Origin: Polyangiales bacterium
GTDB lineage: Bacteria; Myxococcota_A; Polyangia; Polyangiales; Houyiibacteriaceae
NCBI GenBank assembly: GCA_035466435.1
Contig: DATIUW010000324.1
Span: 1,208-65,207, forward strand
Direction: 5' to 3'
DNA: 64,000 nucleotides
Below the pieces are notes generated by a model. That model saw only the letters and a program-made list of their open reading frames with translations. It was not told where the DNA came from and made no database searches. This document shows, one piece after another, positions 6,867 to 48,005 of this stretch. Within the stretch, counting starts at the first letter, position 1; every line of letters begins with the position of its first letter. The position numbers and the translations under genes are program-made.

Positions 6867-7736
6867 TCAGAACGAGCGCAGCGTCAATCCTTCGGTCGTC
6901 GCGCAGTCCCCCGTGGTTCCGCAATCGGGCGCATCGCCGTTTCGGGTCACGGCGATAGCCACCCCAGCTCCGATCCCGGCCGCCGCAATCACGCCGATCA
7001 TCACCCAGAACCCCGGGCTCTTGACGAAACGCTTGCGGTCATCGCGGTCTTCCTCGATAGGCGCAGGCCCGGAAAGGCCCTCGTCACTCCCGGAGACGGC
7101 GATGCTCGATGGGCTGATGCTCAGCACCGGATCGAGGACTGCCGGCACGGCCTGCGGTTGCAGCTCGATTCGATGAGCCTCTCGGCTTCCGCGTTCCACC
7201 CGAATCTCTCGTCGATGCGACTCGTAGCCCTCGTTCGTCACGCGTATCGAATGCTCGCCTGGATTCAGCACCAGATGTCGCTCGGATCCCGTCAGCATGG
7301 ATGGACGGCCGTCTACGAAAACGACCGCGGTCTCTGGGATGACGGTCAAATGGACTTCGGCGACCGTGCTTTCCAGAAGCGCGCGGAGCGCTCGTCCACG
7401 CTCTCGAGCGGTTTCCGAATCGCGCACCTCCGGCATTCGGTCGTACTCGTCCAGCTCCGCAAGCGCCTCTACCGGTCGATCCAGTCGATACAGCGCGTTG
7501 GCGATGTTGTACGAAGTGCTCGGCCGGGAGACGATTGCTGCGGAACGACGAAACGCGGATAGCGCCTCCGCCCAGCGATCCACTTCCGCCAACCCCAAGC
7601 CCTCTTCGAATAGCTTTCGGGCTTCTTCCTGCTGCGACTGCTGCGCTTCCTGCCCAGTGGCTCGGGCCGCGACCGCGGTGAGAACGACCGCGGCAACCAG
7701 GCACAATCGGAGAACGAGAGCGGTCGAGCTCACCAT
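6867..7736 (-). CDS. Secreted/membrane-anchored TPR-like plus PEGA-domain protein
   Basis: Has a signal peptide ('LRLCLVAAVVLTAVAARA'), a PEGA-like segment ('LTVIPETAVVFVDGRP...HSIRVTNEGYESH') and a C-terminal TM helix ('FWVMIGVIAAAGIGAGVAIAV'). Confidence 0.65.
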   Translation of the reverse strand: MVSSTALVLRLCLVAAVVLTAVAARATGQEAQQSQQEEARKLFEEGLGLAEVDRWAEALSAFRRSAAIVSRPSTSYNIANALYRLDRPVEALAELDEYDRMPEVRDSETARERGRALRALLESTVAEVHLTVIPETAVVFVDGRPSMLTGSERHLVLNPGEHSIRVTNEGYESHRREIRVERGSREAHRIELQPQAVPAVLDPVLSISPSSIAVSGSDEGLSGPAPIEEDRDDRKRFVKSPGFWVMIGVIAAAGIGAGVAIAVTRNGDAPDCGTTGDCATTEGLTLRSF

Positions 7737-9175: not shown

Positions 9176-9237
9176 GGACGAGCTTCGTCGTTCTATGGCG
9201 CCGGTCGCGCCCGGCGTGGAAGGGGGAAAGATGAAGA

Positions 9238-13125: not shown

Positions 13126-13524
13126 CTAGCGTTGGTAGCAGAGTTGGAGCACGCCGCCGCCGAGTTTTCCCTTCACTCGGAGGCTTAGCTTTTCGTCACG
13201 GACGAGCTTGCGTTGGTTCAGATCGACTCCAAATCGAGCGAGCCTGTCGACCTGTGCGACGAAATCGAGCAGATCCCGTGAGAAGGTGAACCCCTGAACC
13301 TCGGGTGTCCCTGCGGCAGCTTGGATCAGATAGGGGTTACGGATGCCCAGAACTGCAGCCGGCGCTGCAAATGGCGCCGATTGGATCGCAGCAGTCGGAG
13401 GATCGGCAGAAGCGCTCTTGGCAGAGAAAAGACTGCCGATGAGGGCACACAGAAAACAGAAGACGCCCACACACGGACAGCGACGGGGGGTGCTCGACCC
13501 CCACTGAACATTCCTTCTACTCAT
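13126..13524 (-). CDS. Hypothetical small secreted protein
   Basis: Has an N-terminal hydrophobic signal ('VGVFCFLCALIGSLFSAKSASA') and high third-position GC. No motif was recognised. Confidence 0.5.
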   Translation of the reverse strand: MSRRNVQWGSSTPRRCPCVGVFCFLCALIGSLFSAKSASADPPTAAIQSAPFAAPAAVLGIRNPYLIQAAAGTPEVQGFTFSRDLLDFVAQVDRLARFGVDLNQRKLVRDEKLSLRVKGKLGGGVLQLCYQR

Positions 13525-13693
13525 CCACTGCTCACTATGGCAGAAGCCCCGTACTTACGCCAGATGGGTTAAAACCCGGCACCATGGGCACCTCTCGATG
13601 TGGAGAAGCTACCTGGTCCGTCAGCAAAAGCAAAGCATTCCTCACGTATTTTACGAAACGTTTACGTTGCACCCGAGGACTCGAGGGCGGCTG

Positions 13694-13725
13694 CAGAAAG
13701 AACAAAGCCCGGACACCGCCGGGCT
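13694..13725 (-). terminator. Rho-independent terminator downstream of ftsZ
   Basis: On the minus strand it reads 5'-AGCCCGG-CGGTGT-CCGGGCT-TTGTTCTTTCT. This is a 7-bp GC stem at 13706-13712/13719-13725, followed by a T-rich tail. It lies 30 nt after the ftsZ TAA. Confidence 0.7.
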
Positions 13726-13754
13726 TCAAGCTAAGTCTTTGAAAGCGCGAATGA

Positions 13755-14972
13755 TTACTCGGCGCCCGGCCTGCCTCGCCGCAGGTATGCCGGAATGTCC
13801 AGGACAGCCTCGTCGTGGAGCGCGCTGGCCCCAAAAGCGCGCGTGCCCGCGGTTTGAGGAACCGTCGCCGGGACGCCCTCGAGCGTCGAAGAGAAATCGT
13901 CGCTGCGGGAAGAGCTCTGCCGCGTCGCCCTATTGGCGGAGCCGCCATGGGCCGACTGACCGCTGGATGCGCCGTGGCGGAGCCCGAGCGGAATCGGTGT
14001 GTGCGCACCGCGCTCGAAGCCGGTGGCGATCACGGTGACCTTTACGGTATCGGAGAGGTTCGAATCGGTGACCACGCCGAAGATGATTTCGGCTTCCTCG
14101 TGCGCCGCTTGCTGCACCAATCCGGCGGCCTCGTTGATCTCACGGAGCTTGATGTCGGGACCTGCGGTGAAGTTGATCAAGATTCCCGTTGCGCCCTGCA
14201 CCGACACCTCGTCCAGCAGCGGCGAGTTGATCGCCATCTCCGCTGCCTCGAGTGCGCGGCGGTCGCCCTTCGCGATGCCCGTGCCCATGAGGGCTCTTCC
14301 GTTGTTCACCATGATGGTCTTCACATCGGCAAAGTCCACGTTGATCATGCCCGCGTTGATGATCAAGTCGCTGATGCCTTGCACCGCCTGCAAGAGCACG
14401 TCGTCGGCGCGCGCAAACGCATCCAGCATGGTGATGTCGTCGTCGCCGAGCGACATGAGACGCTGGTTCGGGATGGTGATGATGCTGTCGATCGATTCGC
14501 TCAGCTCTTGAACGCCCCGCTCCGCATTCTTTGCGCGCTTGCGTCCTTCGAACAGGAACGGCTTGGTCACCACCCCGACGGTGAGTGCGCCTTGATCTTG
14601 TGCAATCTGGGAGATGATCGGCGCCGCGCCCGTACCGGTGCCGCCACCCATCCCGGCCGTGATGAACACCATGTCGGCGCCCTCGAGCGCTTCGGAGATT
14701 CGTTGAACGTCTTCGAGCGCGGCCTTGCGGCCCACGTCTGGGTTGCCGCCTGCACCGAGCCCCCGTGTCAGGGTCGGCCCGAGCTGAATCTTCACCGACG
14801 CGAGGCTGCGGTCCAGCGCTTGTGCGTCCGTGTTGGCCGCGATGAACTCCACGCCTTCGAGCCCGCTCCGAATCATCGTGTTGAGCGCGTTGCCGCCACT
14901 GCCACCGATCCCCACAACCTTGATGCGTGCCTGAAGCTCCGCGTCGTCCGCAAACTCGATCGAGATACCCAT
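13755..14972 (-). CDS. ftsZ: Cell division protein FtsZ
   Basis: Has the tubulin signature 'GGGTGTGAAP', plus 'NTDAQAL' and the C-terminal peptide 'LDIPAYLRR'. Confidence 0.98.
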   Translation of the reverse strand: MGISIEFADDAELQARIKVVGIGGSGGNALNTMIRSGLEGVEFIAANTDAQALDRSLASVKIQLGPTLTRGLGAGGNPDVGRKAALEDVQRISEALEGADMVFITAGMGGGTGTGAAPIISQIAQDQGALTVGVVTKPFLFEGRKRAKNAERGVQELSESIDSIITIPNQRLMSLGDDDITMLDAFARADDVLLQAVQGISDLIINAGMINVDFADVKTIMVNNGRALMGTGIAKGDRRALEAAEMAINSPLLDEVSVQGATGILINFTAGPDIKLREINEAAGLVQQAAHEEAEIIFGVVTDSNLSDTVKVTVIATGFERGAHTPIPLGLRHGASSGQSAHGGSANRATRQSSSRSDDFSSTLEGVPATVPQTAGTRAFGASALHDEAVLDIPAYLRRGRPGAE

Positions 14973-14981
14973 CGATTCCTC

Positions 14982-16211
14982 CTAAAAGACCTCTTTGAAC
15001 CAGGCGCCGAGCCGTCGACCGAATCCGCGGCTTGCAGCCACTTCCACGGTGCGATCGGGCGCGGACGTTCCCATCAACTGCGCCGCTCCGTGCTTCACCA
15101 ATCCAACGCCGGTGGCGTAGGACGGGCTCTTCACCACGTCGATCAGCCCGCCGATGCCCGTCGGAGCGCCACGACGAACCGGTAGACCGAGAACTTCCTC
15201 GGCGAGCTCCGGCAATCCATCGAGAAGCGTGGTGCCACCAGTGACGATGGCCCCCGATGCCAGCATGTCCGTGTAACCCGTCTCGGCAATCACGTGCCGG
15301 CATGCGGCGAAGATTTCCTCCACGCGGGGCTCGATGATGTCGCAGAGCACGCGGCGCGGGATCGAACGCGGGGGGCGACCGCCGACGGAAGGGACGTCGA
15401 TGGTCTCATCGTCGTCGACCATTCGCGATGCGGCGCAGCCGTACTTGATCTTGATGCGCTCTGCTTCCGCCATCGGAGTGCGAAGACCGGTGGCGACGTC
15501 GCTCGTCAGATTGAGCCCGCCGATGGGAATCGAGCTGGTATGCACGACGGCTCCATCGACGTAGATGATGATGTCGGACGTGCCGCCGCCAATGTCGATC
15601 AACACGGCGCCAATCTCTCGCTCGTCGCTGCTGAGCACTGCATGCGCGCTCGCCAGTGGCTGTAGGACCACCTCCTCGACGAACAAGCCGCAGCGCTCCG
15701 CACACTTGGTGACGTTCGCAACGCTCGTCGATGCAGCCGTCACCATGTGAACGCGCGCCTCGAGCCGCACGCCAGCCATGCCGATTGGTTCCTTGATCCC
15801 GTCCTGCTCGTCGACGATGTACTCTTGAGGCAGCACGTGAAGCACTTGCCGATCGCCGGGCAGCGGCACGGCCTTGGCCTGCTCCAGAACCCGGGCGACA
15901 TCTTCGGCTGCGACCTCGCGATTGGCGATGGCGGCGACTCCATCCTGGTTCATTCCACGGACGTGGCTTCCGGCGATGCCCGCGTAGACCGTGTTGATCT
16001 CCACTCCGGCCATCGTTTCGGCTTGTTCGACCGCGGCGCGGATGGCTTGCACCGTCGACTCGATGTTGACGACGACGCCCTTCTTCAAGCCCTTTGAAGG
16101 AACGGACCCTATCCCGATGATGTCTAGGCCTTCTTCGGACTGCTCAGCCACGATCGCGCAGACCTTCGTCGTTCCCAGATCCAAACCCGCAATGATCTCG
16201 TTTCCCGCCAT
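14982..16211 (-). CDS. ftsA: Cell division protein FtsA
   Basis: Actin-fold motifs are present ('GLDLGTTKVCAIV', 'DIGGGTSD'). It sits between ftsQ and ftsZ. Confidence 0.95.
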   Translation of the reverse strand: MAGNEIIAGLDLGTTKVCAIVAEQSEEGLDIIGIGSVPSKGLKKGVVVNIESTVQAIRAAVEQAETMAGVEINTVYAGIAGSHVRGMNQDGVAAIANREVAAEDVARVLEQAKAVPLPGDRQVLHVLPQEYIVDEQDGIKEPIGMAGVRLEARVHMVTAASTSVANVTKCAERCGLFVEEVVLQPLASAHAVLSSDEREIGAVLIDIGGGTSDIIIYVDGAVVHTSSIPIGGLNLTSDVATGLRTPMAEAERIKIKYGCAASRMVDDDETIDVPSVGGRPPRSIPRRVLCDIIEPRVEEIFAACRHVIAETGYTDMLASGAIVTGGTTLLDGLPELAEEVLGLPVRRGAPTGIGGLIDVVKSPSYATGVGLVKHGAAQLMGTSAPDRTVEVAASRGFGRRLGAWFKEVF

Positions 16212-16344
16212 GCCTCGCCTCTGTCTGACCCATACACAAACGGGTTTTGCCGGGACAACTTTCGTGCAGAAAAAAAAGGGGCGAAATGCACTTTTTGGAT
16301 GCCGGGGATTAACCCGTCTGCGGCGCGTTCAACCGGCTCGCCGC

Positions 16345-17418
16345 TCACGGGAGGCGAACGGTTACCCGCTCAGGACTTCGAACGTTGTCGAGGTATACGT
16401 AGGAAGGTCTCGTTTTCTCACGGGCTAGTCGATCGAGGACTTGCCGCAGACGGCGAAGCTTGTGACGATGTTGACCGTTGCCCAATCGCACGTTCATCCC
16501 ATCGTCGCCGATGAAGAGCTCGATACCGTTGGCTCCGGCGAAATGAATTTCGGAAACCGGCTCCCGCGAGGCGAGGCCGGCACCCTCGTAGTCCTGCAAC
16601 AGAGCCATCGATTGAAGCAGCACGGAGGTGCGATAGTCGAGATCATCGTAGAATTGCTCCGATGCGATCCCGGTGATGACCGGTAGGTCGACGGGGTCGT
16701 CGACCCCGAGCCGCTTGAACACGGCGCCATCGTCGCTCACCAGATAGAGCTGATCCAAAGCAACCAAGGCGACGGGACGCCGCTCCACGACCTGAATGCG
16801 AACGCGTCCCGGCAGCCTCCGAACGACCTTCGCTTCCTCCACCCATGGATGTCGAAGCAAGTGATTGCGGGCCTCTTCGGCTGAAACCTCGAAAATGTTT
16901 GAGCCTATGTGCAAATGCGCCGCCCGACGAACGTCGATGTCTTCGAGCTGACGATTGCCTTCGATGATGATTTCGCGAATTGCGAACGCATCCGCAGTGT
17001 GGGCGTACCGAATGGTCTGGTTTCCAAGCCAGCCGAGCGCGGCGAGGGCGGCACCCAGGAGCAGGAGCCGCCCGGCCCGGCGAGCCGATCCCTGATGACG
17101 TATGATCCAGCTGCTGATCGAATCGCGCAGGCCGGACGCGCGCTCTCGCCAGCTCGTGCGAGGTGTGCGTGCTGGACGCTCCCTGCTAGCCCGGCGACGG
17201 CGGTTTCGGACACCTTCGTCTTTGCGCGCGGCTTTTCTGGCCGTGATTCGCCTGACGAACGCGGAGCGGGACGCAGGCTTCTTGGCGACTTTCTTCACCA
17301 CGGCGTTGCGCCGCGCAGGCCGCTTTCGGCTCTCTTTTTGCGCGGCCGGCTTGCTTCGTATGGGCTTTTTGCGGACCGGCTTCTTCCGGACGGCCGATGG
17401 GGCCCGTCGGCGGTTCAT
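16345..17418 (-). CDS. ftsQ: Cell division protein FtsQ with a long polybasic N-terminal extension
   Basis: Has a TM helix ('[14 protein letters not shown]') and a POTRA region ('[12 protein letters not shown]...[14 protein letters not shown]'). Its ATG overlaps the murC TGA (ATGA at 17415-17418). Confidence 0.85.
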
Positions 17419-18788
17419 CGGCGGAGGACCTCGAGCAGCTCGGGGCCCGTCTTGGTGATGTCTCCCGCCCCGAGCGTTATCACCACGTCACCTGGGCGCA
17501 CCCGCGCGCCGATCGCCTCCGCCAAGTCTTTCCGGTCCTCTATGAACGTCACGTCGCGATGTCCGTGCGCGCGAATGGCGTCCGCCAGTCGGCGTGCATC
17601 CGCCCCTTCGATTGGTTTTTCACCCGCGGCGTACACCTCGGTCAAGAATAGGACATCGGCGCGATTGAACGCCCGAGTGAGCTCATCGAACAAGCTCCGC
17701 GTCCGCGTATAGCGATGCGGCTGGAACGCGACGACCAAACGCTGCCCGTAAGCCCGCTGCGCCGCCTCCAGTGTCACCTCCACCTCCGCGGGGTGGTGAC
17801 CGTAGTCGTCTATGATGGTCACATCCCGTTCTTCACCGACGATCGAAAAGCGACGCTGCACGCCTTCGAAGCTGCGCAGCGCCGAGCGGACCTGATCGTG
17901 ATCCACCCGAAGCTCGTCTGCGACTGCGATCGTTGCAAGGGCGTTGAGGACGTTGTGAATTCCAGGCATGCGAACCTCGAACTGTCCGAGGGGCTTGCCG
18001 GCATGCTCCACGTCGAAGCCTACGGACAGACCGGAGAAGACGGGCTCCCGTGCCCGATAGTCCGCCTGCGCCGAGAGCCCGTACGTCACGATGCGCTTGT
18101 CGATGCGGGGCAGGATGTCCTGGACGTTGGGATGATCGAGACACGCCACGACCAGTCCGTAGAACGGAACTCGATTGGCGAAGCCGACGAAGGCGTCTTT
18201 GACGCCGTCCAGGTCTCCGTAGTGGTCGAGGTGCTCCGGATCGATGTTGGTAATCACCGCGATGGACGGAATCAAGTGTAGGAACGACCCGTCGGACTCA
18301 TCCGCTTCGGCAACCAACAGATCTCCGGCTCCCGTGGCAGCACCCGAGCCCAGCGCGTTGAGCTTCCCGCCGATGACGACGGTTGGATCGAGGCCGGCTG
18401 CTCGCAGCACGGTCGCGACCAACGAAGTCGTAGTCGTCTTGCCATGCGAGCCGGCGATTGCGATTCCATCTTTGAGTCGCATGAGCTCCCCGAGCATCTC
18501 CGCTCGCGGTATGACCGGCACCCCGGATCGCCGCGCCGCCACCAACTCCGGATTGCTGGGTGGAACGGCTGACGAGAAAACGACGACATCGGCCTGGGCC
18601 ACCTGCTCTGCGGCGTGCCCAACGAATATCTTGGCACCCTTGGTCGCGAGGCGCTTCGTGTACTCGTTTTCCCTCAGATCCGAGCCGGTCACGTCGAAAC
18701 CGGAGTCGAGTAGCACCTCTGCGATTCCGCTCATGCCAACGCCGCCAACGCCCACGAAATGGATCGACCGAATCCTGCCTCGAAACAT
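17415..18788 (-). CDS. murC: UDP-N-acetylmuramate--L-alanine ligase
   Basis: '[18 protein letters not shown]', '[10 protein letters not shown]' and overall Mur ligase architecture. Confidence 0.95.
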
Positions 18789-29028: not shown

Positions 29029-29915
29029 GCGACAGCCTCCGCTCTACGAGCCGCGCGGAGCTTCGCGCTACGTGACCTCGGATTTCGTTCCCGCTCCTCA
29101 TCGGAGGCGATGATGGGACGCTTGGTCAACGGGACCAGCTCGATCGAATCCCGGAATGCATGCTTGACGATTCGATCCTCGAGTGAGTGAAAGCTGATCA
29201 CTGCGACCACACCGCCCATCTTCAAGATGCTGGGAAGCTGCCGGAGGAGTGCTTCGAGGTCACCGAGCTCTTCGTTCAACGCGATGCGCAGCGCCTGAAA
29301 CGTCTTGGTGGCGGGGTCGATGCGTCCGCGGCGAGGTCCGGTCGCGCGGTGGATCGCTCGCCGCAAGTCGGTGGTGGATTCGAGCTCGCCCTCTTCGTAG
29401 GCGCGTCGCACCGATCGTGCGATGCGCCGCGAGCGGTGCTCCTCCCCGTATCGATAGATCAGATCGGCCAGCTCTTGCTCACTGCTTCTGGCGATGAGCT
29501 CCAATGCCGTCTCCCCCTCGCTGGGATCCATACGCATGTCGATGGGGCCGGCTTTTGCCAAGGAAAAACCACGATCCTCACGGTCGAGCTGAGCGGAGCT
29601 GACCCCGAGATCGGCGAGGATCCCATCGACCTGCTCGATACCGAGTGAGCTCAATACGGCTCCGAGATCCCGAAGCCGCGCTTTGCGGAGCATCACGCGG
29701 TCGCCGAACTCTTCGAGCACTTCCGCGGCAGCCTCGAGCGCGTTTGGATCTCGATCGGTCGCAACCAGGCGGCCGTCGGGCGCGCTCCGTTCGAGAATCG
29801 CGCGCGCGTGTCCTGCTCCCCCGACGGTCACGTCCGCGTAAACTCGGCCCGGAGCGGGACGAAGCTGCTCCAGCACTTCTTCCACCAACACGGGGGTATG
29901 CTCGAACGCGCTCAT
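29025..29915 (-). CDS. rsmH: 16S rRNA (cytosine1402-N4)-methyltransferase
   Basis: ATG at 29915 ('MSAFEHTPVLVEEV') overlaps the mraZ TGA. 'DVTVGGAGHA', 'DLGVSS' and 'ISFHSLEDR' are present. Confidence 0.95.
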   Translation of the reverse strand: MSAFEHTPVLVEEVLEQLRPAPGRVYADVTVGGAGHARAILERSAPDGRLVATDRDPNALEAAAEVLEEFGDRVMLRKARLRDLGAVLSSLGIEQVDGILADLGVSSAQLDREDRGFSLAKAGPIDMRMDPSEGETALELIARSSEQELADLIYRYGEEHRSRRIARSVRRAYEEGELESTTDLRRAIHRATGPRRGRIDPATKTFQALRIALNEELGDLEALLRQLPSILKMGGVVAVISFHSLEDRIVKHAFRDSIELVPLTKRPIIASDEERERNPRSRSAKLRAARRAEAVA

Positions 29916-30364
29916 AGTCCCAGCTCCGCGAGACGTTTCGCGATCCCCAAGCGTCGGTCTTCGTCCGCGAGGACCTCGTTGCGCAAGTCCTCGAAGCTCT
30001 CCTTGGCCCAGAGCTCGATGTAGCTCCCCATCCCGGCCCACAACGCGTCGCGGCTGAGGCGCGCGTGCTTGCGGAGCGCTGCCGGAACGAGAATGCGGCC
30101 GACTTTGTCCACCTCGCACTCCACCGCCCCAGATACGTAGATCCGCTTCAGGATGACCACGTCCGCATCGAACTGCGGGAGCTCCGACAATCGCTTCTCG
30201 AAGGTCAGCCACTCCGCCATGGGATAGGCGACCAAACAGGTGTCGAGCCCGGTGGTCACCACCAGCTTCGAGTCGCCGCGAGCGATCATCACCTCACGGA
30301 ACCGAGAGGGTACGGATGTACGTCCCTTGGCATCGATGCTGTGCTCGTAGCGTCCTCGGAACAA
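29912..30364 (-). CDS. mraZ: Transcriptional regulator MraZ
   Basis: Starts 'MFRGRYEHSIDAKGR' and has two SpoVT/AbrB-like halves. The start codon is TTG (30362-30364), preceded by 'GAGAGGGCGGA'. Confidence 0.93.
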   Translation of the reverse strand: MFRGRYEHSIDAKGRTSVPSRFREVMIARGDSKLVVTTGLDTCLVAYPMAEWLTFEKRLSELPQFDADVVILKRIYVSGAVECEVDKVGRILVPAALRKHARLSRDALWAGMGSYIELWAKESFEDLRNEVLADEDRRLGIAKRLAELGL

Positions 30365-30395
30365 TCCGCCCTCTCGTCGTATTTAGCCGGTGGTT

Positions 30396-30420
30396 GGCAC
30401 TTGATCCCACAAGTTCCCAC
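30396..30420 (-). promoter_or_regulatory. Putative MraZ operator: three direct pentamer repeats at 10-bp spacing
   Basis: The minus strand reads GTGGGAACTT-GTGGGATCAA-GTGCC. On the plus strand these are 'cccac' at 30416-30420 and 30406-30410, and 'ggcac' at 30396-30400. The site lies between the putative -10 and mraZ. Confidence 0.6.
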
Positions 30421-30429
30421 CAAGGCGGG

Positions 30430-30459
30430 AAACTAAGGCTCTAGCTCCTGAAATGTCAA
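30430..30459 (-). promoter_or_regulatory. Putative sigma70-type promoter of the dcw cluster (Pmra-like)
   Basis: On the minus strand: TTGACA (30459-30454), an 18-nt spacer, then TAGTTT (30435-30430). It sits in a locally low-GC spacer about 65 nt upstream of the mraZ TTG. Confidence 0.5.
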
Positions 30460-30668
30460 CTTCTTTCTTCAGCCCAAGTGACAGAATTAAAAGGGTTTTT
30501 CCCTTGACTCGAGGGTGTATCAAACGTGGGAATCTAGGTGGGAAGGTTAGAGCTTCCACCGATCAACGCGCCGCGAGTCGAGCCCTGTTCCCGTCCTCGG
30601 CTGAGAGCGGCTTTCATGCGGAGATCGTTCGACTTCCGCCGCCTAGGTGGCGACGGTCGCATGCTACT

Positions 30669-31004
30669 CTGGAGTCCTTGGATCCGATCGACGAAGCGTG
30701 GGCGCGGGTCGAGGCCGACTGGGCGAGCGAGGAAGCACATCGCCAATTCGTGGCTGTGTGCATGGCCCTCGACCGCCTGCCCGAAGCTGGCAAGCGATAC
30801 CGCCACGCCCGCGAGACCGATCCGGGCCGGAGCGAAGACGCGGCCAGGCACATCGATACCCTGATCGTCCTGGCCACCCAGCGCCTTCAGGACACGCGGG
30901 TGGCGCCCGCCACTTCCAATCACAAAAGGACGCTGACCTGGGTCGCGTTCACTATGATGCTGTTGTTGATGGGCGCGGGGGCCTGGTTGTTGATGCGGGG
31001 ATGA
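30669..31004 (+). CDS. Hypothetical tail-anchored small protein (~110 aa); start uncertain
   Basis: Third-position GC becomes coding-like only from about 30660 in the frame of track ORF 30453..31004. Candidate starts are CTG 30669 and TTG 30678. The C-terminal TM helix is 'WVAFTMMLLLMGAGAWLL'. The track ATG at 30453 lies inside the dcw -35 box in low-GC sequence. Confidence 0.45.
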   Translation: MESLDPIDEAWARVEADWASEEAHRQFVAVCMALDRLPEAGKRYRHARETDPGRSEDAARHIDTLIVLATQRLQDTRVAPATSNHKRTLTWVAFTMMLLLMGAGAWLLMRG

Positions 31005-31035
31005 TCCGCCCTCGGAAGTGCTAGCGACTCGAGAG

Positions 31036-31710
31036 ATGCGATTAGATCTTGGTGTAAGAGAGCTGACCCTGAAGCTGGTCTACTACGGACCGGCGCTCAG
31101 CGGAAAGACGACCAACCTGCGTGCCCTTCACAGGCTTGCCAGCCCGGAAACCCGCGGCCGGCTCATGACGCTCGGCATGAGGAACGAACGCACGCTGTTC
31201 TTCGACATGCTGCCCATCGGGATCACGGTCGGGAACGGCTTCAGGATTCGTCTGAAGCTCTTCAGCGTGCCAGGCCAACTCGTGCACGAGCCGACTCGGC
31301 GTCTGGTACTCCAGGATGCAGACGGCGTCGCATTCATCGCGAGCTCTCGAAGGAGTGAGGAGAGCACGAACCGGGAGTCGTTCCTTCGCCTCCATCGAAA
31401 CCTACAGCACAACGGCGTCGAGCCGGCGCGTATGCCCATGGTCGTTCAATTCAACAAACGCGACCTCGAAGACATTCACTCGGATGAAGATCTCGCAACG
31501 ATCGGGACCCGGAGCCGCGAGCCGATCTACAAAGCCGTCGCGACGCGCGGACGAGGAGTCATGCAAACACTGCATGGCTTGATCCGAGAAACCTGGAGCA
31601 GGCTCGAAGAGGAACACCATCTCGAGGACCGGCTGGGAATCAGTCCTTCGAGCTCGATGCAGGCATTCGAGTCGACGCTCGGGAATCAAACCAAATGGCG
31701 GTCATCATGA
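31036..31710 (+). CDS. MglA-family Ras-like small GTPase
   Basis: Aligns with MglA throughout: 'LKLVYYGPALSGKTTNL', 'ERTLFFDMLP', 'LFSVPGQ', 'VQFNKRDL', 'YKAVATRG'. The start is ATG 31036 (alternative GTG 31018). Confidence 0.85.
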   Translation: MRLDLGVRELTLKLVYYGPALSGKTTNLRALHRLASPETRGRLMTLGMRNERTLFFDMLPIGITVGNGFRIRLKLFSVPGQLVHEPTRRLVLQDADGVAFIASSRRSEESTNRESFLRLHRNLQHNGVEPARMPMVVQFNKRDLEDIHSDEDLATIGTRSREPIYKAVATRGRGVMQTLHGLIRETWSRLEEEHHLEDRLGISPSSSMQAFESTLGNQTKWRSS

Positions 31711-33110
31711 TGCAGAACGACCCCAGCTCGGCCGATATCCTGATGGGAGACGTCGTCCGCCTCGAGGACGTTCTGAGCCGAGCCTCGGCCGCCTCGGTAT
31801 GCAAATCGTTCTTCGCGCTGTTCGGGCTGCCGGTGCGCATCCTTTCGCAAGACGGCGAGCTCGTGGCCGAATCGCGCCGCGAACGCCCCCTTTGCAAGTA
31901 CCTCAATACGCTCGCGGAAGGACGACGGCGTTGCTCGCAGACCCTCGAAGAGGCGCGCCTCACCCAACCGGAGGGCGGATCGATCGTCCACCCTTGCTTC
32001 TCGGGCGCCGTGTACCGAATCGTGCCTCTGTTGCATCAGCAACGCGCCATCGGGCGCTTCGTCGTGGGGCCTTACGTTCCATTCGAGGCTTCGAGCCCCC
32101 CGGAATCACTCGGCTCGGTCGAGTCGATCGACGCAGGTGCGGCCAGCACGCATTTCAGTGAGATGCCCCGCGCACGAGAGGATGTCGTAGAGCAAATATG
32201 TGCCCACCTCGAGGAGGTTCTAGAGCTACTCGTATTCTCTGGTCATCGCGCGCAGCTCGCGTCGACCATGCAGGTTGCCAGCATGCGCGAAAGCTACCGC
32301 GAGCTCGCGGAAAAGAACGAAGCGCTCAACGAATCGCACGAGGCGCTCAAGCAGGTCGACAAGCTCAAATCGACCTTTCTCGCGACCGTCAGTCACGAGC
32401 TACGGAGCCCGCTCACCTCGATCATCGGTTACACCGAGATGCTGCAAAGTGGAGCAATTGGTACGCTGAGTAGCGAACAGTCGGAGATTCTGAAGACCGT
32501 TCATGGGAAGGCCGGCGAGCTCTTGAGCCTGATCAGCAGCTTGCTCGATTTGGGACAACTCGAGTCGAGGACGCTCGATCTGCAATACGAGGTGGTGGAC
32601 CCGCGCGCTCTGTTGTCCGGAATCGCTTCGACCGTCGTTCCGAGCGCCAATCGACGCAACGTCGGGCTAGACATTCGCGTCGCTGTGGATACGCCAAAGA
32701 TTTGGGGCGACTCAATCCGGCTCCGCCAGATCATCCTCAATCTGACCGACAATGCGATCAAGTTCACCCACGAAGGAGGCCAGGTGGAGCTCGCGGCAGC
32801 CCCCGCACGGCTCGAGCTCGCAGGTCCGGCTGGCTTGGGTTCCGCGCTCTTCACCGCCAATCGTCCGGCGGTGGCGCTCCACGTTCGAGACACCGGCATG
32901 GGCATCGCCGAAGACAAGCTCTCCCGAATCTTCGAGGCATTCTACCAGGTGGATGGCGGCACGACGCGCGTCCACGGCGGTGCGGGTCTCGGTTTGTCGA
33001 TCGTGAAGCAACTCGTCGACGCCCATGGCGGCACGATCGACGTGACGAGCAAGCCCGGGGAAGGCACACTCTTCACGGTGACGCTGCCTGCGGCTAATCA
33101 CGATGCGTGA
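31707..33110 (+). CDS. Cytoplasmic sensor histidine kinase with N-terminal PocR-like sensory domain
   Basis: ATG at 31707 overlaps the GTPase TGA (alternative ATG 31695). Has a PocR-like Cys-containing region, H-box 'SHELRSPLTSIIGYTEML', N box 'LTDNAIKFT', and G boxes 'DTGMGI' and 'GGAGLGLSIV'. No TM helix is present. Confidence 0.85.
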   Translation: MMQNDPSSADILMGDVVRLEDVLSRASAASVCKSFFALFGLPVRILSQDGELVAESRRERPLCKYLNTLAEGRRRCSQTLEEARLTQPEGGSIVHPCFSGAVYRIVPLLHQQRAIGRFVVGPYVPFEASSPPESLGSVESIDAGAASTHFSEMPRAREDVVEQICAHLEEVLELLVFSGHRAQLASTMQVASMRESYRELAEKNEALNESHEALKQVDKLKSTFLATVSHELRSPLTSIIGYTEMLQSGAIGTLSSEQSEILKTVHGKAGELLSLISSLLDLGQLESRTLDLQYEVVDPRALLSGIASTVVPSANRRNVGLDIRVAVDTPKIWGDSIRLRQIILNLTDNAIKFTHEGGQVELAAAPARLELAGPAGLGSALFTANRPAVALHVRDTGMGIAEDKLSRIFEAFYQVDGGTTRVHGGAGLGLSIVKQLVDAHGGTIDVTSKPGEGTLFTVTLPAANHDA

Positions 33111-34053
33111 CGAGTTCGCCAAGATCGACTGGCTCAAGACCCGTTTCGAGCTCGATGGAGACGATGACGAGGTCGTGATCGGGATAGGCGACGACGCAGC
33201 GGTGATGGACTTCGGGAACCGGCCCACCGTCATCACGGTCGACACGCAAGTGGAGAACGTTCACTTTCGGCTGGACTTGATCTCGCACCGCGACGTCGGG
33301 TACCGGGCAATGGTTGCCGCTGTGAGTGACGTGTGGGCCATGGCGGCCATGCCGAACGCCTCGGTGGTCGCGCTGAATCTTCCCAACGCGCTGTCCGACG
33401 ACGATTTCCACGAGCTGATCGAGGGTCTTGCGGACGCCGCACGCGGCACGGGCGCGCGAGTCATCGGTGGCAATCTCAGCCGAGGAGAGGTCTTGTCGAT
33501 CACGACCACCGTTTTCGGCCTCCCCATCGCCCAGCCGATCGGGCGCGACGGCGCAAGAGTCGGCGATGCAATCTACGTCACCGGTACGCTCGGGGCGGCC
33601 GCCCTCGGCCTGCTCGTCCTCGAGTCGGGACGCCTCGACCTCGAGCACGGGTCGACATTCGCTGAACGCTGGCGCAAGCCGCCCATGAACGGCCAAGGTG
33701 CAAAGGCACTCGCCGAGCTCGCCAGCGCCGCGGTCGACGTGTCCGATGGCTGTGTTCAAGACCTCGAACACGTGTGTACCGCTTCTCACGTCGGCGCCAC
33801 GCTGTTCGCGCATGCCCTTCCTCTAGAGCCTGGATACGAGGCGACCTGTAGCTCGCTCGATGTCGATCCGCGGGAGTTGGCGCTCACCGGGGGGGAAGAC
33901 TACGAGCTGCTGTTTACCGCTACGCAGTCTGAGGATGCCGCATCGTTCGCAACGCTCATCGGAGAGATCACCGAAGGCACGGGTGTTCGGGTCGTCGACG
34001 AACGCGGCGAATCGATTGAATTCGAAAGACGGGGTTTTCGTCATTTCTCGTAG
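33103..34053 (+). CDS. thiL: Thiamine-monophosphate kinase
   Basis: AIR-synthase-related fold: 'IGDDAAV', 'TVDTQVENVHF', 'GYRAMVAAVSDVWAMAA', 'GGNLS'. The start overlaps the HK stop by 8 nt. Confidence 0.9.
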   Translation: MRDEFAKIDWLKTRFELDGDDDEVVIGIGDDAAVMDFGNRPTVITVDTQVENVHFRLDLISHRDVGYRAMVAAVSDVWAMAAMPNASVVALNLPNALSDDDFHELIEGLADAARGTGARVIGGNLSRGEVLSITTTVFGLPIAQPIGRDGARVGDAIYVTGTLGAAALGLLVLESGRLDLEHGSTFAERWRKPPMNGQGAKALAELASAAVDVSDGCVQDLEHVCTASHVGATLFAHALPLEPGYEATCSSLDVDPRELALTGGEDYELLFTATQSEDAASFATLIGEITEGTGVRVVDERGESIEFERRGFRHFS

Positions 34054-35216
34054 AGCCAGGCGCTGCGCCGCTCCGAGTCGAACTTGGCGGCACCACGGGA
34101 TTCCTCCGAGAGCACCTCCTCGAGTGGCGCGCCCGAGTCCACGGCGAGTCGAAACTCCGGTCCACCGGTGAGCAGATCGATCGCCGGCCGGTCCGACACG
34201 AACTCGTATGGCTCGGAACGCCAACGAGCCGCCTTGGGCAGCGCTGGAAGCACGGCGCGAAGCATCTTGAGATACGACTCATAGGGTCGGAATACCCAAG
34301 GATCGGTGACGTGGGTTTGTACCCCGCGGCAAGGGCGGCCGGCGTGCTTCTGAAACGTCGGAACGAACTCGACCGGCCGCAGCGCCACGCCATGAAGATC
34401 CAGCGCGAGGAGCCCGGAAATGTCCAGACCAGGAGCACCCCAAAGCTCGAATGGCCTGGTGGTTCCCCGTCCTTCGGACAGCGTAGTGCCCTCGATGAGA
34501 CATCCCCCAGGGTAAACCATCGCAGTGTCGAGCGTCGGCATGTTGGGAGAGGGCATCACCCAAGGAAGCCCCGTATCTCTCCATTCCATCGCTCGGCGCC
34601 AACCGTCCATGGGAACCACCTGCAAGACGTCGTGATCGAGATGCTCGATGTCGCAAACGAAGCGCAAGACCTCCGCTATCGTGAGACCGTGCCGCACCGC
34701 AACCGGATACAAGCCGACGAAGGAAAGATAGCCTTCACGCTGGGGCGCGCCCTCGACTCGTGTGCCTCCGAGAGGATTGGGTCGATCCAAGACTACGACT
34801 TCGACGCCCTGCGCTGCCGCCGCTTTCATGGCGAGGGCTGCCGTCCACACGTAGGTGTAGTAACGCGACCCCACGTCCTGAAGATCGATTACCAGCGCAT
34901 CGAGGCCGCGAAGCCACTCGGGTCGCGGAACCAGATCTTCGGCGTCTTCTCCGTACAACGAATGGACGGCGATCTCGCGCTCTTGGGTCGAGTTGACGCC
35001 CACCATGTCTTGGGCTGCCCCGGCGAAGCCGTGCTCGGGGCCAAAGAGCGCTCGGATGCGCGCACCGGCCTGACCCAGAACGTCCGCGGCCGGGCGCAAC
35101 CGACGGTCGACGCTGGCGGCGTGCGCGAGCAGACCCACGTCGCGCCCTGAAACCAGACGCACTACGTCGGTGTCGCCTTCGGCGATCCGATCGAGGCCTG
35201 TCCGCACGCCCGTCAA
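34041..35216 (-). CDS. DUF1343 family protein (NamZ-like exo-beta-N-acetylmuramidase family)
   Basis: '[11 protein letters not shown]', '[15 protein letters not shown]' and '[11 protein letters not shown]' are present. The start is TTG 35216 (TTGA overlap with pyrB) or GTG 35207. Confidence 0.75.
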
Positions 35217-39594: not shown

Positions 39595-39678
39595 CGATCT
39601 GCTCAACTCGGCGAAATCTGATCGGAATTCGCCCTAGGCACGCTGCTTTTTTCCGGATTTCGGCCTGTGTAGGCAACC

Positions 39679-40554
39679 ATGCTACACATGACGACATCCG
39701 CGGCGGTCGCAGCGAGGATCGAGAGGAAAGCCCGGGACGCGGGCCCCTTCGTGAAGTGGGCTGGAGGCAAAGGGCGGCTGCTCAGCCAGCTGCGGCCGCT
39801 TCTTCCTCCGGGTGTCGCCAAGATGCGGCACGTCGAGCCATTCGTCGGCGGAGGGGCCATGTTCTTTTCGCGCCAGCCGGAACGGGCCCTCTTGACAGAC
39901 ATCAACCCCGCGTTGGTCGACGCGTACCATGCCATCCGGGACGACGTGGATCGGGTCATCGACGCATTGGAAGAGCTTGCCGCCGGTCATTGCAAGGAAC
40001 GCTACTACCAGGTCCGCGAACGCTACAACCGTCGCACGAGCCTCGCCGCCCCGAAACGCGCGGCGATGTTCGTCTACTTGAACAAGACCTGCTTCAACGG
40101 TCTGCACCGCGTGAATCGCAAGGGCGAGTTCAACGTGCCTTTCGGCTCGTACAAGAATCCGCGCATCTTGAACGAGGGGGGTCTCAGAGCCGCAAGCCAT
40201 GCGCTCCGTGTCGCAGAGCTTCGCTGCGCCTCTTTCGAGGGCCTGCTCGAAACCGCCAAACCCGGTGACTTCATTTATTTCGATCCGCCGTACGAGCCGG
40301 TGTCGACGACTGCAAGCTTCACCTCCTATGCGCGAGATGGATTCTCGCGAGATGATCAACGCCGGCTGGCCGAGGTCTTTGGAGCGCTCGACCGCAGAGG
40401 GTGCAAGCTGATGTTGTCCAACAGCGACGTCCCTTTCATCCGTGACCTATATCGACGCTTCGAAGTGGACACCGTCGCCGCGCCTCGCGCGATCAACTGC
40501 GACGCGGCGAAGCGTGGCAAGGTGACCGAGGTCGTAGTCCGCAACTACGGTTGA
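39679..40554 (+). CDS. dam: DNA adenine methyltransferase, Dam family (alpha-class N6-MTase)
   Basis: Collinear with E. coli Dam: 'FVKWAGGKGRLL', 'EPFVGGGAMFF', 'LNKTCFNGLHRVNRKGEFNVPFG', 'IYFDPPYEP', 'LSNSD'. Target specificity (GATC?) is not proven. Confidence 0.88.
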   Translation: MLHMTTSAAVAARIERKARDAGPFVKWAGGKGRLLSQLRPLLPPGVAKMRHVEPFVGGGAMFFSRQPERALLTDINPALVDAYHAIRDDVDRVIDALEELAAGHCKERYYQVRERYNRRTSLAAPKRAAMFVYLNKTCFNGLHRVNRKGEFNVPFGSYKNPRILNEGGLRAASHALRVAELRCASFEGLLETAKPGDFIYFDPPYEPVSTTASFTSYARDGFSRDDQRRLAEVFGALDRRGCKLMLSNSDVPFIRDLYRRFEVDTVAAPRAINCDAAKRGKVTEVVVRNYG

Positions 40555-45189: not shown

Positions 45190-46089
45190 ATGGCGAGGGC
45201 GGGAGGAGGTCGGCAGGAGGGAGCCAAGCGCGGGGACAACCGCGCGTCGGGGCTGCTTTGGGGTTCAGTCTTGTTGGGTGGCATTCTCGCCGCTGGCGTC
45301 GTGCTCGCACCTCGGCTTCGGGAGTCATCCGACGAGAAGGTCAGTCCGGTCGAGATAGCGCCCGAAGAAACACGGGGGCTGGGCGCCGCCCCCATCGTGG
45401 AAGAGCTCGCGGTCCGTGTGGTTCGGAAGTACCCGCACGCAGACGATGCATTCACCCAAGGCCTCATCTGGCATGGAGGCGTGCTCTACGAGAGCACCGG
45501 ACAGTACGGCGGCTCGTCATTGCGGAGAGTACGTCTCGAGGACGGCACGATTTTGGCCGAGCGCAAGCTCGAATCCGATCTCTTCGGCGAAGGACTGGCG
45601 CTGGTGGGTCAGCATCTCGTTCAACTCACTTGGCGGGAGGGCGTCGCCGTCGTGTCGGATGTCGGGTCGCTCGAGGAGCGAAAGAGGCTTCGTTATGCCG
45701 GCGAAGGTTGGGGGCTGTGCTTCGATGGCACTTCGCTCGTGATGAGCGACGGGTCGTCGATTCTGGAGTTTCGGGATCCCGAAACCATGGAGCTGGTCCG
45801 GGAGGTCACCGTGTCGAAGAACGGACGCCCAGTCCCGCGGCTCAACGAGCTCGAGTGCGTGGGCTCCGACGTCTACGCCAACATCTGGCAGCGCCAGGAG
45901 ATTCTGCGCATCGATGCAGCGACCGGCAGGGTCACCGGCTCCATCGATGCGAGCAACCTTCTCTCTCGGCGAGAGGCGCTGCGTGCCGACGTTCTCAACG
46001 GCATCGCGTACAAACCCGAAACCGACACGTTTCTATTGACTGGGAAGCTCTGGCCTCACGTATTCGAGGTCGAGCTGGTACCCCGATAG
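45190..46089 (+). CDS. Glutaminyl-peptide cyclotransferase (bacterial/plant beta-propeller type), membrane-anchored
   Basis: ATG at 45190. Has an N-terminal TM helix ('LLWGSVLLGGILAAGVVL'), then 'YPHADDAFTQGLIWHGGVLYESTGQYGGSSLR', 'EGWGLCFDG' and 'LNELECVGSDVYANIWQ'. The upstream part of the 464-aa track ORF is antisense to alr. Confidence 0.85.
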   Translation: MARAGGGRQEGAKRGDNRASGLLWGSVLLGGILAAGVVLAPRLRESSDEKVSPVEIAPEETRGLGAAPIVEELAVRVVRKYPHADDAFTQGLIWHGGVLYESTGQYGGSSLRRVRLEDGTILAERKLESDLFGEGLALVGQHLVQLTWREGVAVVSDVGSLEERKRLRYAGEGWGLCFDGTSLVMSDGSSILEFRDPETMELVREVTVSKNGRPVPRLNELECVGSDVYANIWQRQEILRIDAATGRVTGSIDASNLLSRREALRADVLNGIAYKPETDTFLLTGKLWPHVFEVELVPR

Positions 46090-46922
46090 TCGCCGAGCAC
46101 CGCGACTTCAGGGTCCCACCGTGCGAGGCGTTTTCGCATGGTCGCGATTGCATCCGGGTGCTCGTCCACGAGCACGAAACCTCGACCGAGCCGCGCCGCG
46201 GCCTCTCCCGCTGTCCCGCTGCCCGCGAAGAAATCGAGCACGACATCACCGGGCTCGGTGTGCACTTTGACGATGCGCTCGACGACACCGAGCGGCTTCT
46301 GGGTCGGATAGCCGGTTTTTTCCCTGCTGTTCGTGGGCACGATGGTGTGCCACCAAACGTCGGTCGGAGTCTTGCCACGGGCAGCTTTCTCTTTCCCCAC
46401 CAAGCCCGGCGCCATGTACGGAATCCGGTCCATCTCCTCGAAGCGAAAGACGTACCGTTCGGGATCGAGGGCGTACCACAGGATCGTATCGTGCTTTGCG
46501 GGCCACCATCGCTTCGGCCTGCCGCCGAAGTCATACGCCCAGATGATTTCGTTGCGAAAACACTCACGCCCCAGCAACCGGTCGAGCGCGACTTTCACGT
46601 AGTGGACCTCGCGGTAGTCGAGGTGGACGAAAAGCGAGCCGTCCTCGGTGAGGCAAGGCAGGGCCGCCTCGATCCGGCTGACCAAAAATGCGACGTAGTC
46701 GTCGAAGTCGTCTTCGTATGCAGGGCTCTGCAGTCGCTCGACTTCGTAGCGCCTACCACCGAAGCCCGTGCGGATGCCCTGGGGGTTTGCCCTGACGTTC
46801 ATGCGGCTTCGCGCCTGTTTGCGTCCCGTGTTGAACGGAGGATCGATGTAGATCAGGCGGGCAAACCCACGCGGAAGCTTCGCCAATAGCTCCAGGTTGT
46901 CGCCCTGCAGAATCTGCCTCAC
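46056..46922 (-). CDS. Site-specific DNA methyltransferase, beta-class (N6-adenine or N4-cytosine)
   Basis: Motif IV 'LIYIDPPF' precedes motif I '[13 protein letters not shown]', which is the beta order. 'GYPTQKP' is also present. GTG at 46922 gives the typical N-terminus '[17 protein letters not shown]'. The rest of the 561-aa track ORF is antisense to thiS/thiG. Confidence 0.85.
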
Positions 46923-47006
46923 GCGTGCGAGCGTACCATCGGGCGGCGTGCACGCCCATGCGAAGCCCGCTTGCGGCTCAGTGGAGCCGGTCCTAGCATT
47001 TGTCCG

Positions 47007-47207
47007 ATGCGGCTCTTGGTCAACGGAGAGGAACGGCAGGTCGAAGCGAGCTTGACGGTGAAGCAACTCTTGTCTTCGCTCGGTCTGGGCGACACGCTGG
47101 TGGCCGTGGAGCGCAACGAAGAAGTCGTCCCACGTGCGCAACACCAGAGCACCGTGTTGCACGAGGGCGACCGCATCGAAGTCGTGCACTTCGTAGGAGG
47201 CGGTTGA
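47007..47207 (+). CDS. thiS: Sulfur carrier protein ThiS
   Basis: The 66-aa product starts 'MRLLVNGEE' and ends in the C-terminal 'GGG'. It lies directly upstream of thiG. Confidence 0.88.
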
Positions 47208-48005
47208 GTGTCTCAGGATCCGTTCAAGATCGGTCCGTTCGAGTTTCGTTCGCGATTGTTTACCGGCACCGGCAAGTACCCGGATCTGGATGTCGCGCGC
47301 AAAGCACTGAAGGCATCCGGATGCGAGGTGGTGACCGTCGCCGTTCGGCGCGTCGATTTGAAGGCCACCGGAGCCGACTCGATCATGGCGGTGCTGCGGG
47401 AGGGCAACTACACGATCCTGCCCAACACGGCGGGTTGCTATACCGCGCAGGACGCCATTCGGACGGCGCGCCTGGCTCGCGAGCTCCTCGACACTCCTCT
47501 CATCAAGCTGGAGGTCATCGGAGATGAAAAGACCCTCTTTCCCGACGTCCCCGCCACGCTCGAAGCCGCCAAAACCCTGGTGGAGGACGGATTCACGGTC
47601 CTGCCCTACTTCAACGACGACCCAGTCGCGGCGCGCCGCTTGGAGGACATGGGTTGCGCTGCCGTGATGCCTCTCGCTGCGCCCATCGGGAGCGGCCTCG
47701 GTGTGCGGAATCCTTTCAACATCGAGATCATCGTCAAGCACGCAGGCGTGCCGGTCATCGTCGATGCCGGTGTGGGCACGGCGTCGGATGCAGCGGTCGC
47801 GATGGAGCTAGGTATCGACGGTGTGCTCATGAATACCGCGATCGCGGGCGCGAAAGACCCGGTTCGCATGGCCCGTGCAATGAAGGCGGCCGTCGAAGCC
47901 GGCCGAGATGCATTCCTCGCCGGCCGTATCCCTCGAAAGCTCTACGCCACCGCGTCGAGCCCGCTCGAAGGCGTCATCGGTTCCGAGCAAGACGGCCGCT
48001 CCTGA
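47208..48005 (+). CDS. thiG: Thiazole synthase
   Basis: The GTG start abuts the thiS TGA. 'LFTGTGKY', 'IKLEVIGD' and '[12 protein letters not shown]' are present. Confidence 0.95.

Follow-up and report, generated by a model that had tools for sequence, protein, structure and literature searches.

A SofG-type small GTPase gene that overlaps a PocR histidine kinase gene in Polyangiales: a candidate two-protein signaling unit

We analyzed a 64,000-nucleotide stretch of the genome of a Polyangiales bacterium (GenBank assembly GCA_035466435.1, contig DATIUW010000324.1, positions 1,208 to 65,207 of the forward strand), which is referred to here as the window. At 30.4-34.1 kb of the window, four successive genes on the + strand encode a small helical protein (the mini-protein), an MglA-family small GTPase, a soluble histidine kinase with a PocR sensory domain, and thiamine-phosphate kinase (thiL). 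We propose that the GTPase, which is of the SofG type, and the PocR kinase, whose genes overlap and lie in one operon with thiL, act together as a two-protein signaling unit, and we put the probability of this reading at roughly 60%. In this lineage, the operon would be preceded by the gene for the mini-protein, a predicted tail-anchored helical protein.

The junction between the GTPase gene and the kinase gene was the starting point for this proposal. In the window, the ATG start codon of the kinase gene overlapped the TGA stop codon of the GTPase gene by 4 nt (ATGA, beginning at 31707), an arrangement that is consistent with translational coupling. This overlap had been noted in an earlier annotation made from the sequence of the stretch (the original prediction), and all of the open reading frames (ORFs) that the annotation described were found at or near where it had placed them. 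For comparison, one genome per species was scanned, which yielded 80 loci, all of them in Polyangiales metagenome-assembled genomes (MAGs) and two complete Sorangium genomes. The GTPase orthologues at these loci were 221-243 aa in length and 50-65% identical. A PocR kinase gene was located directly downstream, on the same strand, in 79/79 loci in which the contig continued. Because the arrangement recurs in every evaluable related locus, it is far beyond chance. The junction itself was overlapping in 74 of the 75 loci in which it was measured (by 4 nt in 66 loci, by 1 nt in 6, and by 8 nt in 2), and no inversions or insertions were seen there. The same overlap was found in Cystobacterineae and in two further lineages of unassigned taxonomy, so the adjacency on which the original prediction had staked its case was kept well outside the order in which it was noticed. 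The flanks of the pair were fully replaced between lineages: many Polyangiales have the dcw cluster there, Sorangium has other genes, the lineage represented by P0177 has Lon, and Cystobacterineae have a GNAT gene plus the dif cluster.

A tight operon structure is no proof of partnership, because thiL is also conserved next to the pair and often overlaps its neighbor with no obvious functional link. We used thiL, which the original prediction had overlooked, as an internal control for operon tightness. The thiL gene was identified with TIGR01379 (254.9 bits versus a cutoff of 184), and the last 8 nt of the kinase gene, from the ATG of thiL onward, belong to both genes (ATGCGTGA). It was found downstream in 75/80 Polyangiales loci and also in Cystobacterineae. 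The spacing between the kinase gene and thiL ranged from -14 to +2346 nt, thiL was inverted in four loci, and two genes separated it from the kinase gene in the Myxococcaceae strain JPH2. The GTPase-kinase junction was far more constrained than the kinase-thiL junction (overlapping in 74/75 versus 36/75 loci); thiL is probably co-transcribed with the kinase gene and is the least tightly linked member. As an observation in its own right, thiL is a housekeeping cofactor gene that rides in a signaling operon across a phylum.

These comparisons bear on the possibility that the GTPase, kinase, and thiL genes are co-transcribed for reasons of history or expression level, that their products do not interact, and that the kinase serves an unrelated two-component pathway. 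The presence and frequent overlap of thiL, for which there is no obvious functional reason, is what would be expected under this explanation, and the literature yielded no experiment that ties SofG to a kinase. However, the GTPase-kinase junction was much tighter than that of thiL and was free of inversions and insertions, the pair outlasted the full turnover of both flanks between Polyangia and Cystobacterineae, and two independent GTPase-kinase fusion architectures were found. We consider mere co-transcription to be improbable.

The first of the two fusions, P0188, is a 665-aa protein encoded at positions 3045-5042 of locus L082, which is on a MAG contig with a GC content of 38.5%. Its ORF is clean and joins the GTPase, the C-terminal extension typical of the family, and a PocR-HisKA-HATPase_c kinase in the order in which they occur in the two separate genes. 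A frameshift artefact is an unlikely source of P0188, as the junction contained no homopolymers or Ns and the other two frames were full of stops. The second fusion, P0283, has the architecture GTPase-GAF-HATPase_c. Each fusion is known from one contig, and kinase domains were found in just 2 of the 18 long MglA-like representatives that were scanned, so fusion is rare. The conserved overlap, the turnover of the flanks, and the fusions argue that the GTPase and the kinase work together, and we infer that the two proteins bind each other.

The GTPase was identified via sequences in the PDB, as the profile libraries were silent: no Pfam or NCBIfam model matched at E <= 0.01, and scans up to E <= 10 were also empty. 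In phmmer searches of the PDB, the MglA proteins of Myxococcus xanthus and Thermus matched with E values of 1.4e-41 to 2.7e-40, and the alignment was collinear over residues 6-193, as had been described for this 224-aa ORF. An AlphaFold2 (AF2) model built on 66 homologues had a mean predicted local distance difference test (pLDDT) score of 82 and a predicted template modeling (TM) score (pTM) of 0.85, and its best Foldseek matches were MglA structures (E = 5e-18; TM score of 0.84 normalized to the target). At the C-terminus, the proteins at the 80 loci have some 30 additional residues that are conserved (W..LE.EH.L..KFG...), and AF2 predicted two short helices for them. In addition, the HMMER cluster representatives contained many MglA-like proteins of 300-800 aa (e.g., P0180, P0205, and P0217) with long C-terminal regions that had no Pfam match; these extended proteins are a large, apparently uncharacterized group of bacterial small GTPases.

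The motifs in the window GTPase are the P-loop GPALSGKTT, the switch I sequence ERTLFFD, SVPGQ, NKRD, and AVA. The signatures of Group 1 MglA proteins, as defined by Wuichet and Sogaard-Andersen (2014; PMC4316618), are an intrinsic Arg next to the G2 Thr, TVPGQ, and NKxD. Arg52-Thr53 was invariant in 80/80 orthologues, and the catalytic Gln81 of G3 and the NKRD of G4 were also invariant at the 80 loci; G3 reads TVPGQ in 79/80 loci and SVPGQ in the window protein. The canonical P-loop, GPGLCGKTT, carries a Gly at the position of Ras G12. The 80 Polyangiales orthologues all have the P-loop GPALSGKT[TS], in which GxxxxGKT is intact and an Ala (residue 20 of the window GTPase, codon at 31093-31095) replaces MglA Gly21 (Ras Gly12). 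By its motifs, then, the window GTPase is assigned the signatures of Group 1 MglA, except for the P-loop Ala. The original prediction that the protein keeps every catalytic element was right about Arg-Thr, Gln, NKRD, AVA, and GKTT, and it overlooked the Gly-to-Ala change.

Outside the orthologues at the 80 loci, the residue equivalent to Ras G12 was Ala in P0172, Gly in the Archangium, JPH2, and P0177 proteins, and Pro in the P0188 fusion. Given this variation, the catalytic cycle of SofG-type GTPases may differ between lineages. Ras G12 and MglA G21V mutants are a model for impaired GTP hydrolysis. By analogy, the Ala found in Polyangiales may reduce intrinsic hydrolysis or hydrolysis stimulated by a GTPase-activating protein (GAP).

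The nearest relatives of the GTPase outside Polyangiales came from HMMER, which was run exhaustively over 1.84 billion cluster representatives. These relatives were P0172, a protein from the complete genome of Archangium violaceum (P0423), and a protein from JPH2 (P0378). In all three loci, the genes for two PilT/PilB-type ATPases and a GNAT protein are oriented away from a series of genes in the order GTPase, PocR kinase, thiL, MCP, CheW, CheY, CheA, and CheC, and the GTPase and kinase genes overlap by 4 nt. The M. xanthus genes MXAN_6706 and MXAN_6705 encode PilT paralogues (PMC13584747), MXAN_6704 encodes a GNAT protein (PMC4048283), sofG is MXAN_6703 (PMC4316618, Table S2), and difA, difC, difD, and difE are MXAN_6696, MXAN_6694, MXAN_6693, and MXAN_6692, respectively. 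Because the Archangium gene order matches that of the M. xanthus sofG locus, the Archangium GTPase was assigned as the positional orthologue of SofG, and its kinase would correspond to the gene 3' of sofG. That gene is expected to be MXAN_6702 and to encode the kinase.

We also observed that, at loci L086, L087, and L088 (approximately positions 6000-9700 and 13300-18500), the Archangium and JPH2 pair is flanked by the PilT/PilB-type ATPase and GNAT genes and by the dif cluster, a chemosensory cluster for exopolysaccharide and type IV pili. The sofG-type neighborhood in Archangium and JPH2 is rich in pilus-related functions.

Positional orthology with sofG was seen in Archangium, JPH2, and P0172, whereas the flanks in the window and in other Polyangiales differ (dcw cluster). 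The window is linked to the sofG-locus proteins via the common downstream kinase and thiL genes and via a neighbor-joining tree. In this tree, which was calculated without bootstrap and from a set that did not include the MXAN_6703 sequence itself, the kinase-linked GTPases (the window family, the sofG-locus proteins, P0177, P0315, and a fusion) grouped apart from MglA-type proteins. The window GTPase was 54.7% identical to the Archangium protein versus 37.5% identical to MglA. The corrected length of SofG is 239 aa (PMC4316618, main text), and two orphan Group 1 entries, sce0386 (242 aa, Sorangium) and Hoch_2556 (220 aa, Haliangium), are, like SofG, listed alongside canonical mglBA pairs (PMC4316618, Table S2); the lengths of these two entries agree with those of the orthologues that we found. 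The gene order in Archangium and JPH2 and the sequence comparison place the window GTPase in the SofG clade of Group 1 MglA, and the locus is probably the Polyangiales version of the myxobacterial sofG locus. The GTPase is no uncharacterized MglA paralogue, because a member of its clade, M. xanthus SofG, has a described role. Specifically, SofG acts with the bactofilin BacP to position PilB and PilT at the pole and is required for type IV pilus-dependent motility (PMC4085708).

The kinase gene encodes a 467-aa protein that was confirmed as a soluble PocR histidine kinase with an intact H-box and intact N, G1, and G2 boxes. The PocR (PF10114; 56.7 bits versus a cutoff of 23.9), HisKA (67.8 bits), and HATPase_c (101.4 bits) matches all exceeded the Pfam cutoffs, and no membrane helix was found in the kinase at threshold level (maximum KD19 of 1.51). 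The H, N, G1, F, and G2 boxes were kept in 78 orthologues. Because these catalytic boxes are conserved, the kinase is expected to autophosphorylate and then to pass the phosphate to an unlinked receiver encoded elsewhere. Three cysteines in the PocR domain (C-x13-C ... CF[ST]G at kinase residues 63, 76, and 97; 31893-32000 in the window) were kept in most orthologues, including those of Cystobacterineae. Speculatively, these cysteines may hold a metal or a cofactor or respond to redox conditions. When the PocR region was used as the query of a word-indexed protein search, most of the matches were truncated fragments, and none came from a cultured myxobacterium.

The original prediction had also stated that neither an adjacent MglB nor a response regulator is encoded, and our searches agreed with it on both counts. 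For the receiver domain, tblastn gave no match above noise at E <= 1 in the 64-kb window, a negative that is indicative only. A receiver domain was located within 6 kb of the pair in only 1 of the 80 loci (L031), and no cognate response regulator gene was found near the pair in the window. In the case of MglB, tblastn found no similar sequence in the window or at the 80 loci, which is likewise indicative only, and Robl_LC7 was not found in the Pfam-annotated neighborhoods, in agreement with the tblastn result. Coupling to mglB within four genes is typical of Group 1 GTPases and is not obligatory; the window GTPase is an orphan like SofG, for which a missing adjacent mglB is the known state. 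The literature on the stimulation of SofG by MglB is conflicting: MglB was reported in 2014 not to stimulate SofG (PMC4316618), and two papers (PMC11016934, PMC13408092) cite Kanade et al. (2021) for MglB as a GAP of SofG.

In the two-protein unit that we propose, the nucleotide state of the GTPase and a cue sensed by the PocR domain would most likely set the autophosphorylation or phosphatase activity of the kinase, and the kinase would signal to an unlinked response regulator. The GTPase state is placed on the input side because the GTPase sits at the N-terminal "input" position of the kinase in the fusions. GTP hydrolysis would rely on the intrinsic Arg52 and Gln81 and may be accelerated by an MglB protein encoded elsewhere, and the Ala at the Ras-G12 position would probably slow or alter it. 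If the role of SofG in M. xanthus is a guide, the output would probably be the polar organization of type IV pilus ATPases. This motility output is pure analogy, because the window is without type IV pilus or bactofilin genes.

Several points weigh against this proposal. The direction of signaling rests solely on the domain order in two fusions, each of which is known from one contig. No type IV pilus or bactofilin genes were found in the window, and the dcw cluster that flanks the operon there is unlike the flanks in Cystobacterineae. The orthology with SofG rests on synteny in Archangium and JPH2, on a tree without bootstrap support values, and on published gene numbers. The conserved and often overlapping thiL gene has no obvious functional tie to the pair. 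Finally, the mechanistic meaning of the residue equivalent to Ras G12 is uncertain, because it varies among Ala, Gly, and Pro across the clade.

The absence of a linked response regulator, in the window and in 79/80 loci, also suits the reverse order, in which the kinase is upstream of the GTPase. Here, PocR would sense a small molecule or redox state, and the kinase would serve as a GAP, a guanine nucleotide exchange factor, or a nucleotide-state-specific scaffold or would phosphorylate the GTPase; the GTPase would be the output that acts on polar targets, and no response regulator would be needed. A precedent is the conservon, the analogue that has been studied most, in which the kinase-like CvnA works with a GTPase and without a dedicated response regulator (PMC4316618, PMC13343842). 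An upstream kinase could also help to account for how SofG is regulated and kept to a single pole, for which PMC4085708 offers no explanation, and the conserved C-terminal extension of the GTPase could serve as a docking element. On the other hand, the canonical H-box and ATP-binding boxes in 78 orthologues argue for retained phosphotransfer to a receiver, the GTPase occupies the usual place of an input domain in the fusions, and MglB has, according to the citing papers noted above, already been reported as a GAP of SofG. We judge an upstream kinase to be unlikely, and it is the alternative that we take most seriously. Our order of preference is that the GTPase and PocR are inputs of the kinase, followed by the kinase acting on the GTPase, followed by no functional link.

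A wider form of our preferred reading is that, across Myxococcota, SofG-type GTPases have the PocR kinase as their dedicated partner. The two proteins would then form a Roadblock-independent unit that joins the state of the GTPase with a metabolite or redox cue sensed by PocR and relays them by phosphotransfer, or the reverse. We advance this generalization tentatively, as one that falls somewhat short of even odds. If it is true, the unit supplies a missing regulatory layer for the SofG-dependent polar organization of type IV pilus motors, and the M. xanthus kinase encoded 3' of sofG, presumably MXAN_6702, is an overlooked regulator of motility and polarity.

A role in cell biology is known for only a few Ras-like GTPases of bacteria, SofG among them, and the kinase is a concrete candidate for the partner of SofG. 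The two genes are paired at every evaluable Polyangiales locus (by overlap in all but one of the measured junctions), two genomes of cultured Cystobacterineae have the pair at the position of sofG, as do other relatives, and the two proteins are occasionally fused. The kinase partner should also exist in M. xanthus, which is genetically tractable. If the link is real, it is a second, mechanistically distinct way of wiring a small G protein to a histidine kinase, beside the conservon of actinobacteria. A link without function would leave an ordinary SofG orthologue in a conserved operon.

The first of the four genes required a correction. In the comparison of orthologous loci, conservation of the mini-protein began exactly at DPIDEAW, which is preceded by a GTG or TTG codon. 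We therefore placed the start at the TTG at 30678, which yields a protein of 108 aa; position 30669, where the original prediction had placed it, is a CTG. A 183-aa ORF that starts with an ATG at 30453 was rejected as the mini-protein gene because its N-terminal part was unconserved between loci. The region 30453-30677 is AT-rich, and one public gene call (L081) makes the mini-protein 166 aa. The region is most likely the promoter and leader region that diverges from mraZ. The remainder of the original description, a helical protein with one C-terminal transmembrane helix that does not look Roadblock-like, held up. A single hydrophobic helix was found at residues 88-106 of 108 (KD19 of 1.88), and the alignment contained ten invariant residues (A7, W8, W15, H21, F24, A37, G38, Y41, R42, and A55). 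Pfam gave no match in any of 25 family members, and Pfam and NCBIfam scans were empty even at E <= 10. The AF2 model, which was built from a single sequence and is therefore of moderate confidence (pLDDT of 77), had five helices and no strand, and Foldseek found nothing at E < 0.5. A Roadblock/LC7 (MglB-like) identity, which the original prediction had named as a finding that would undo it, was rejected on the basis of this all-helical model and the lack of Pfam and Foldseek matches.

The mini-protein family was found upstream of the GTPase gene in 40-50 of the 80 loci and was missing from Sorangium, other Polyangiaceae, and Cystobacterineae. In locus L033, the mini-protein gene (830-1168) adjoins mraZ, and an insertion of about 4.8 kb precedes the GTPase gene (6001-6648); the open frame in this insertion resembles a tRNA-binding domain, as judged by eye only. 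Judging from this locus, the mini-protein may be no less a part of the region next to dcw than of the GTPase module. With low confidence, we view the mini-protein as a lineage-specific accessory and possibly a membrane anchor.

The features of the locus are listed in Table 1. As originally described, the module diverges from the dcw region. The mraZ gene was found divergently upstream of the module in 48 of the 71 evaluable loci, and it is not at this position in Sorangium or Cystobacterineae. A scan of 30200-34300 revealed no sigma-70-like promoters or terminators above the shuffled background, and Rfam had no match in the window. Elsewhere in the window, two DNA methyltransferase genes are located less than 8 kb apart (39673-40554 and 46056-47807), one of which is Dam-like (MethyltransfD12) and one of which is of the N6_N4_Mtase type, and an SMC gene is located at 53702-57334.

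Table 1. Features of the GTPase-kinase locus and its upstream context (coordinates refer to the window)
Feature	Coordinates	Strand	Evidence or remarks
mraZ, first gene of the divergent dcw cluster (context, outside the module)	29912..30364	-	PF02381, E = 2.2e-31
Divergent intergenic/leader region, mraZ to mini-protein gene	30365..30677	.	Non-coding despite an open frame from ATG 30453
Gene for the 108-aa tail-anchored helical mini-protein, TTG start	30678..31004	+	Conserved cytoplasmic domain of ~75 aa, basic linker, C-terminal transmembrane helix
SofG-type (MglA Group 1 paralogue) small GTPase, 224 aa	31036..31710	+	phmmer, motifs, AF2/Foldseek, synteny
ATGA overlap, kinase start codon on GTPase stop codon	31707..31710	+	Sequence
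Soluble orphan histidine kinase, 467 aa	31707..33110	+	PocR 24-179, HisKA 221-287, HATPase_c 334-463
thiL (thiamine-phosphate kinase)	33103..34053	+	TIGR01379

A Ras-like GTPase gene coupled to a histidine kinase gene had been put forward as an uncharacterized arrangement. In this general form, the claim is preceded by the conservons (AGPS) and by Rup1 (PMC4316618, PMC13343842); the specific pairing of SofG with a PocR kinase is apparently undescribed. We found no report of a kinase partner of SofG or of a PocR kinase tied to a small GTPase in the literature that was covered, which did not include the primary description of SofG, where the neighboring gene may be noted. The Rup1 systems (Wuichet and Sogaard-Andersen, 2014) resemble the locus in that a Ras-superfamily GTPase is encoded with a signaling output protein, which can be a histidine kinase. 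However, Rup GTPases are another family and lack the G3 Gln, and Rup1 systems consist of four genes, including one for an OmpA-domain membrane protein.

The conservon, which encodes the kinase CvnA, the Roadblock protein CvnB, CvnC, and the GTPase CvnD, shares with the locus an MglA-family GTPase, a histidine kinase, and the lack of a dedicated response regulator, and the activities of its kinase and GTPase are thought to be interdependent (PMC4316618, PMC13343842). The likeness of the GTPase and its neighboring kinase to CvnD and CvnA, together with a small uncharacterized protein encoded upstream, raised the idea of a conservon-like module or an MglA/MglB module in disguise, in which the mini-protein replaces the Roadblock GAP. 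We regard this idea as extremely improbable. The mini-protein is all-helical with a transmembrane tail, has no Roadblock-like match, and is missing from half of the loci and from Cystobacterineae, and canonical mglBA genes are found elsewhere in Sorangium and Haliangium (PMC4316618, tables). Moreover, the window contains neither a Roadblock gene nor a CvnC-like (DUF742) gene and is from another phylum; the GTPase has the Group 1 signature (Arg finger-Thr, TVPGQ), whereas CvnD is in Group 2; and the kinase, a soluble protein, has a PocR domain, whereas CvnA is membrane-bound with a HAMP domain and a C-terminal LPxR motif. Conservon membership was rejected, as the locus has none of the defining features beyond a kinase and a GTPase.

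MglA, the cell-polarity switch of the MglA/MglB systems of M. xanthus and Thermus thermophilus, shares with the window GTPase its fold and its Group 1 signature (RT, TVPGQ, and NKRD); the E values are 1e-41 for the sequence comparison and 5e-18 for the structural one. The window GTPase differs from MglA in that it is 37.5% identical in the core, has an Ala in place of Gly21, and carries the extra C-terminal extension of about 30 aa. Furthermore, its gene is coupled to a kinase gene, not to a Roadblock GAP gene, and no mglB gene was found in the window.

In the case of M. xanthus SofG (MXAN_6703), the differences are that the window flanks are the dcw cluster and the mini-protein gene rather than the GNAT gene, the PilT paralogues, and the dif cluster, and that the window P-loop has an Ala at the Ras-G12 position, where the Cystobacterineae proteins have a Gly. 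The binding of SofG to BacP and its role in PilB/PilT positioning are known from M. xanthus experiments only. The likenesses are membership in the same clade of the tree, a similar length (220-242 aa versus 239 aa) with a C-terminal extension, an Arg finger beside the switch I Thr, a catalytic Gln, and no adjacent mglB. In addition, the positional orthologues of SofG in Archangium and JPH2 also have an overlapping PocR kinase gene, with thiL downstream.

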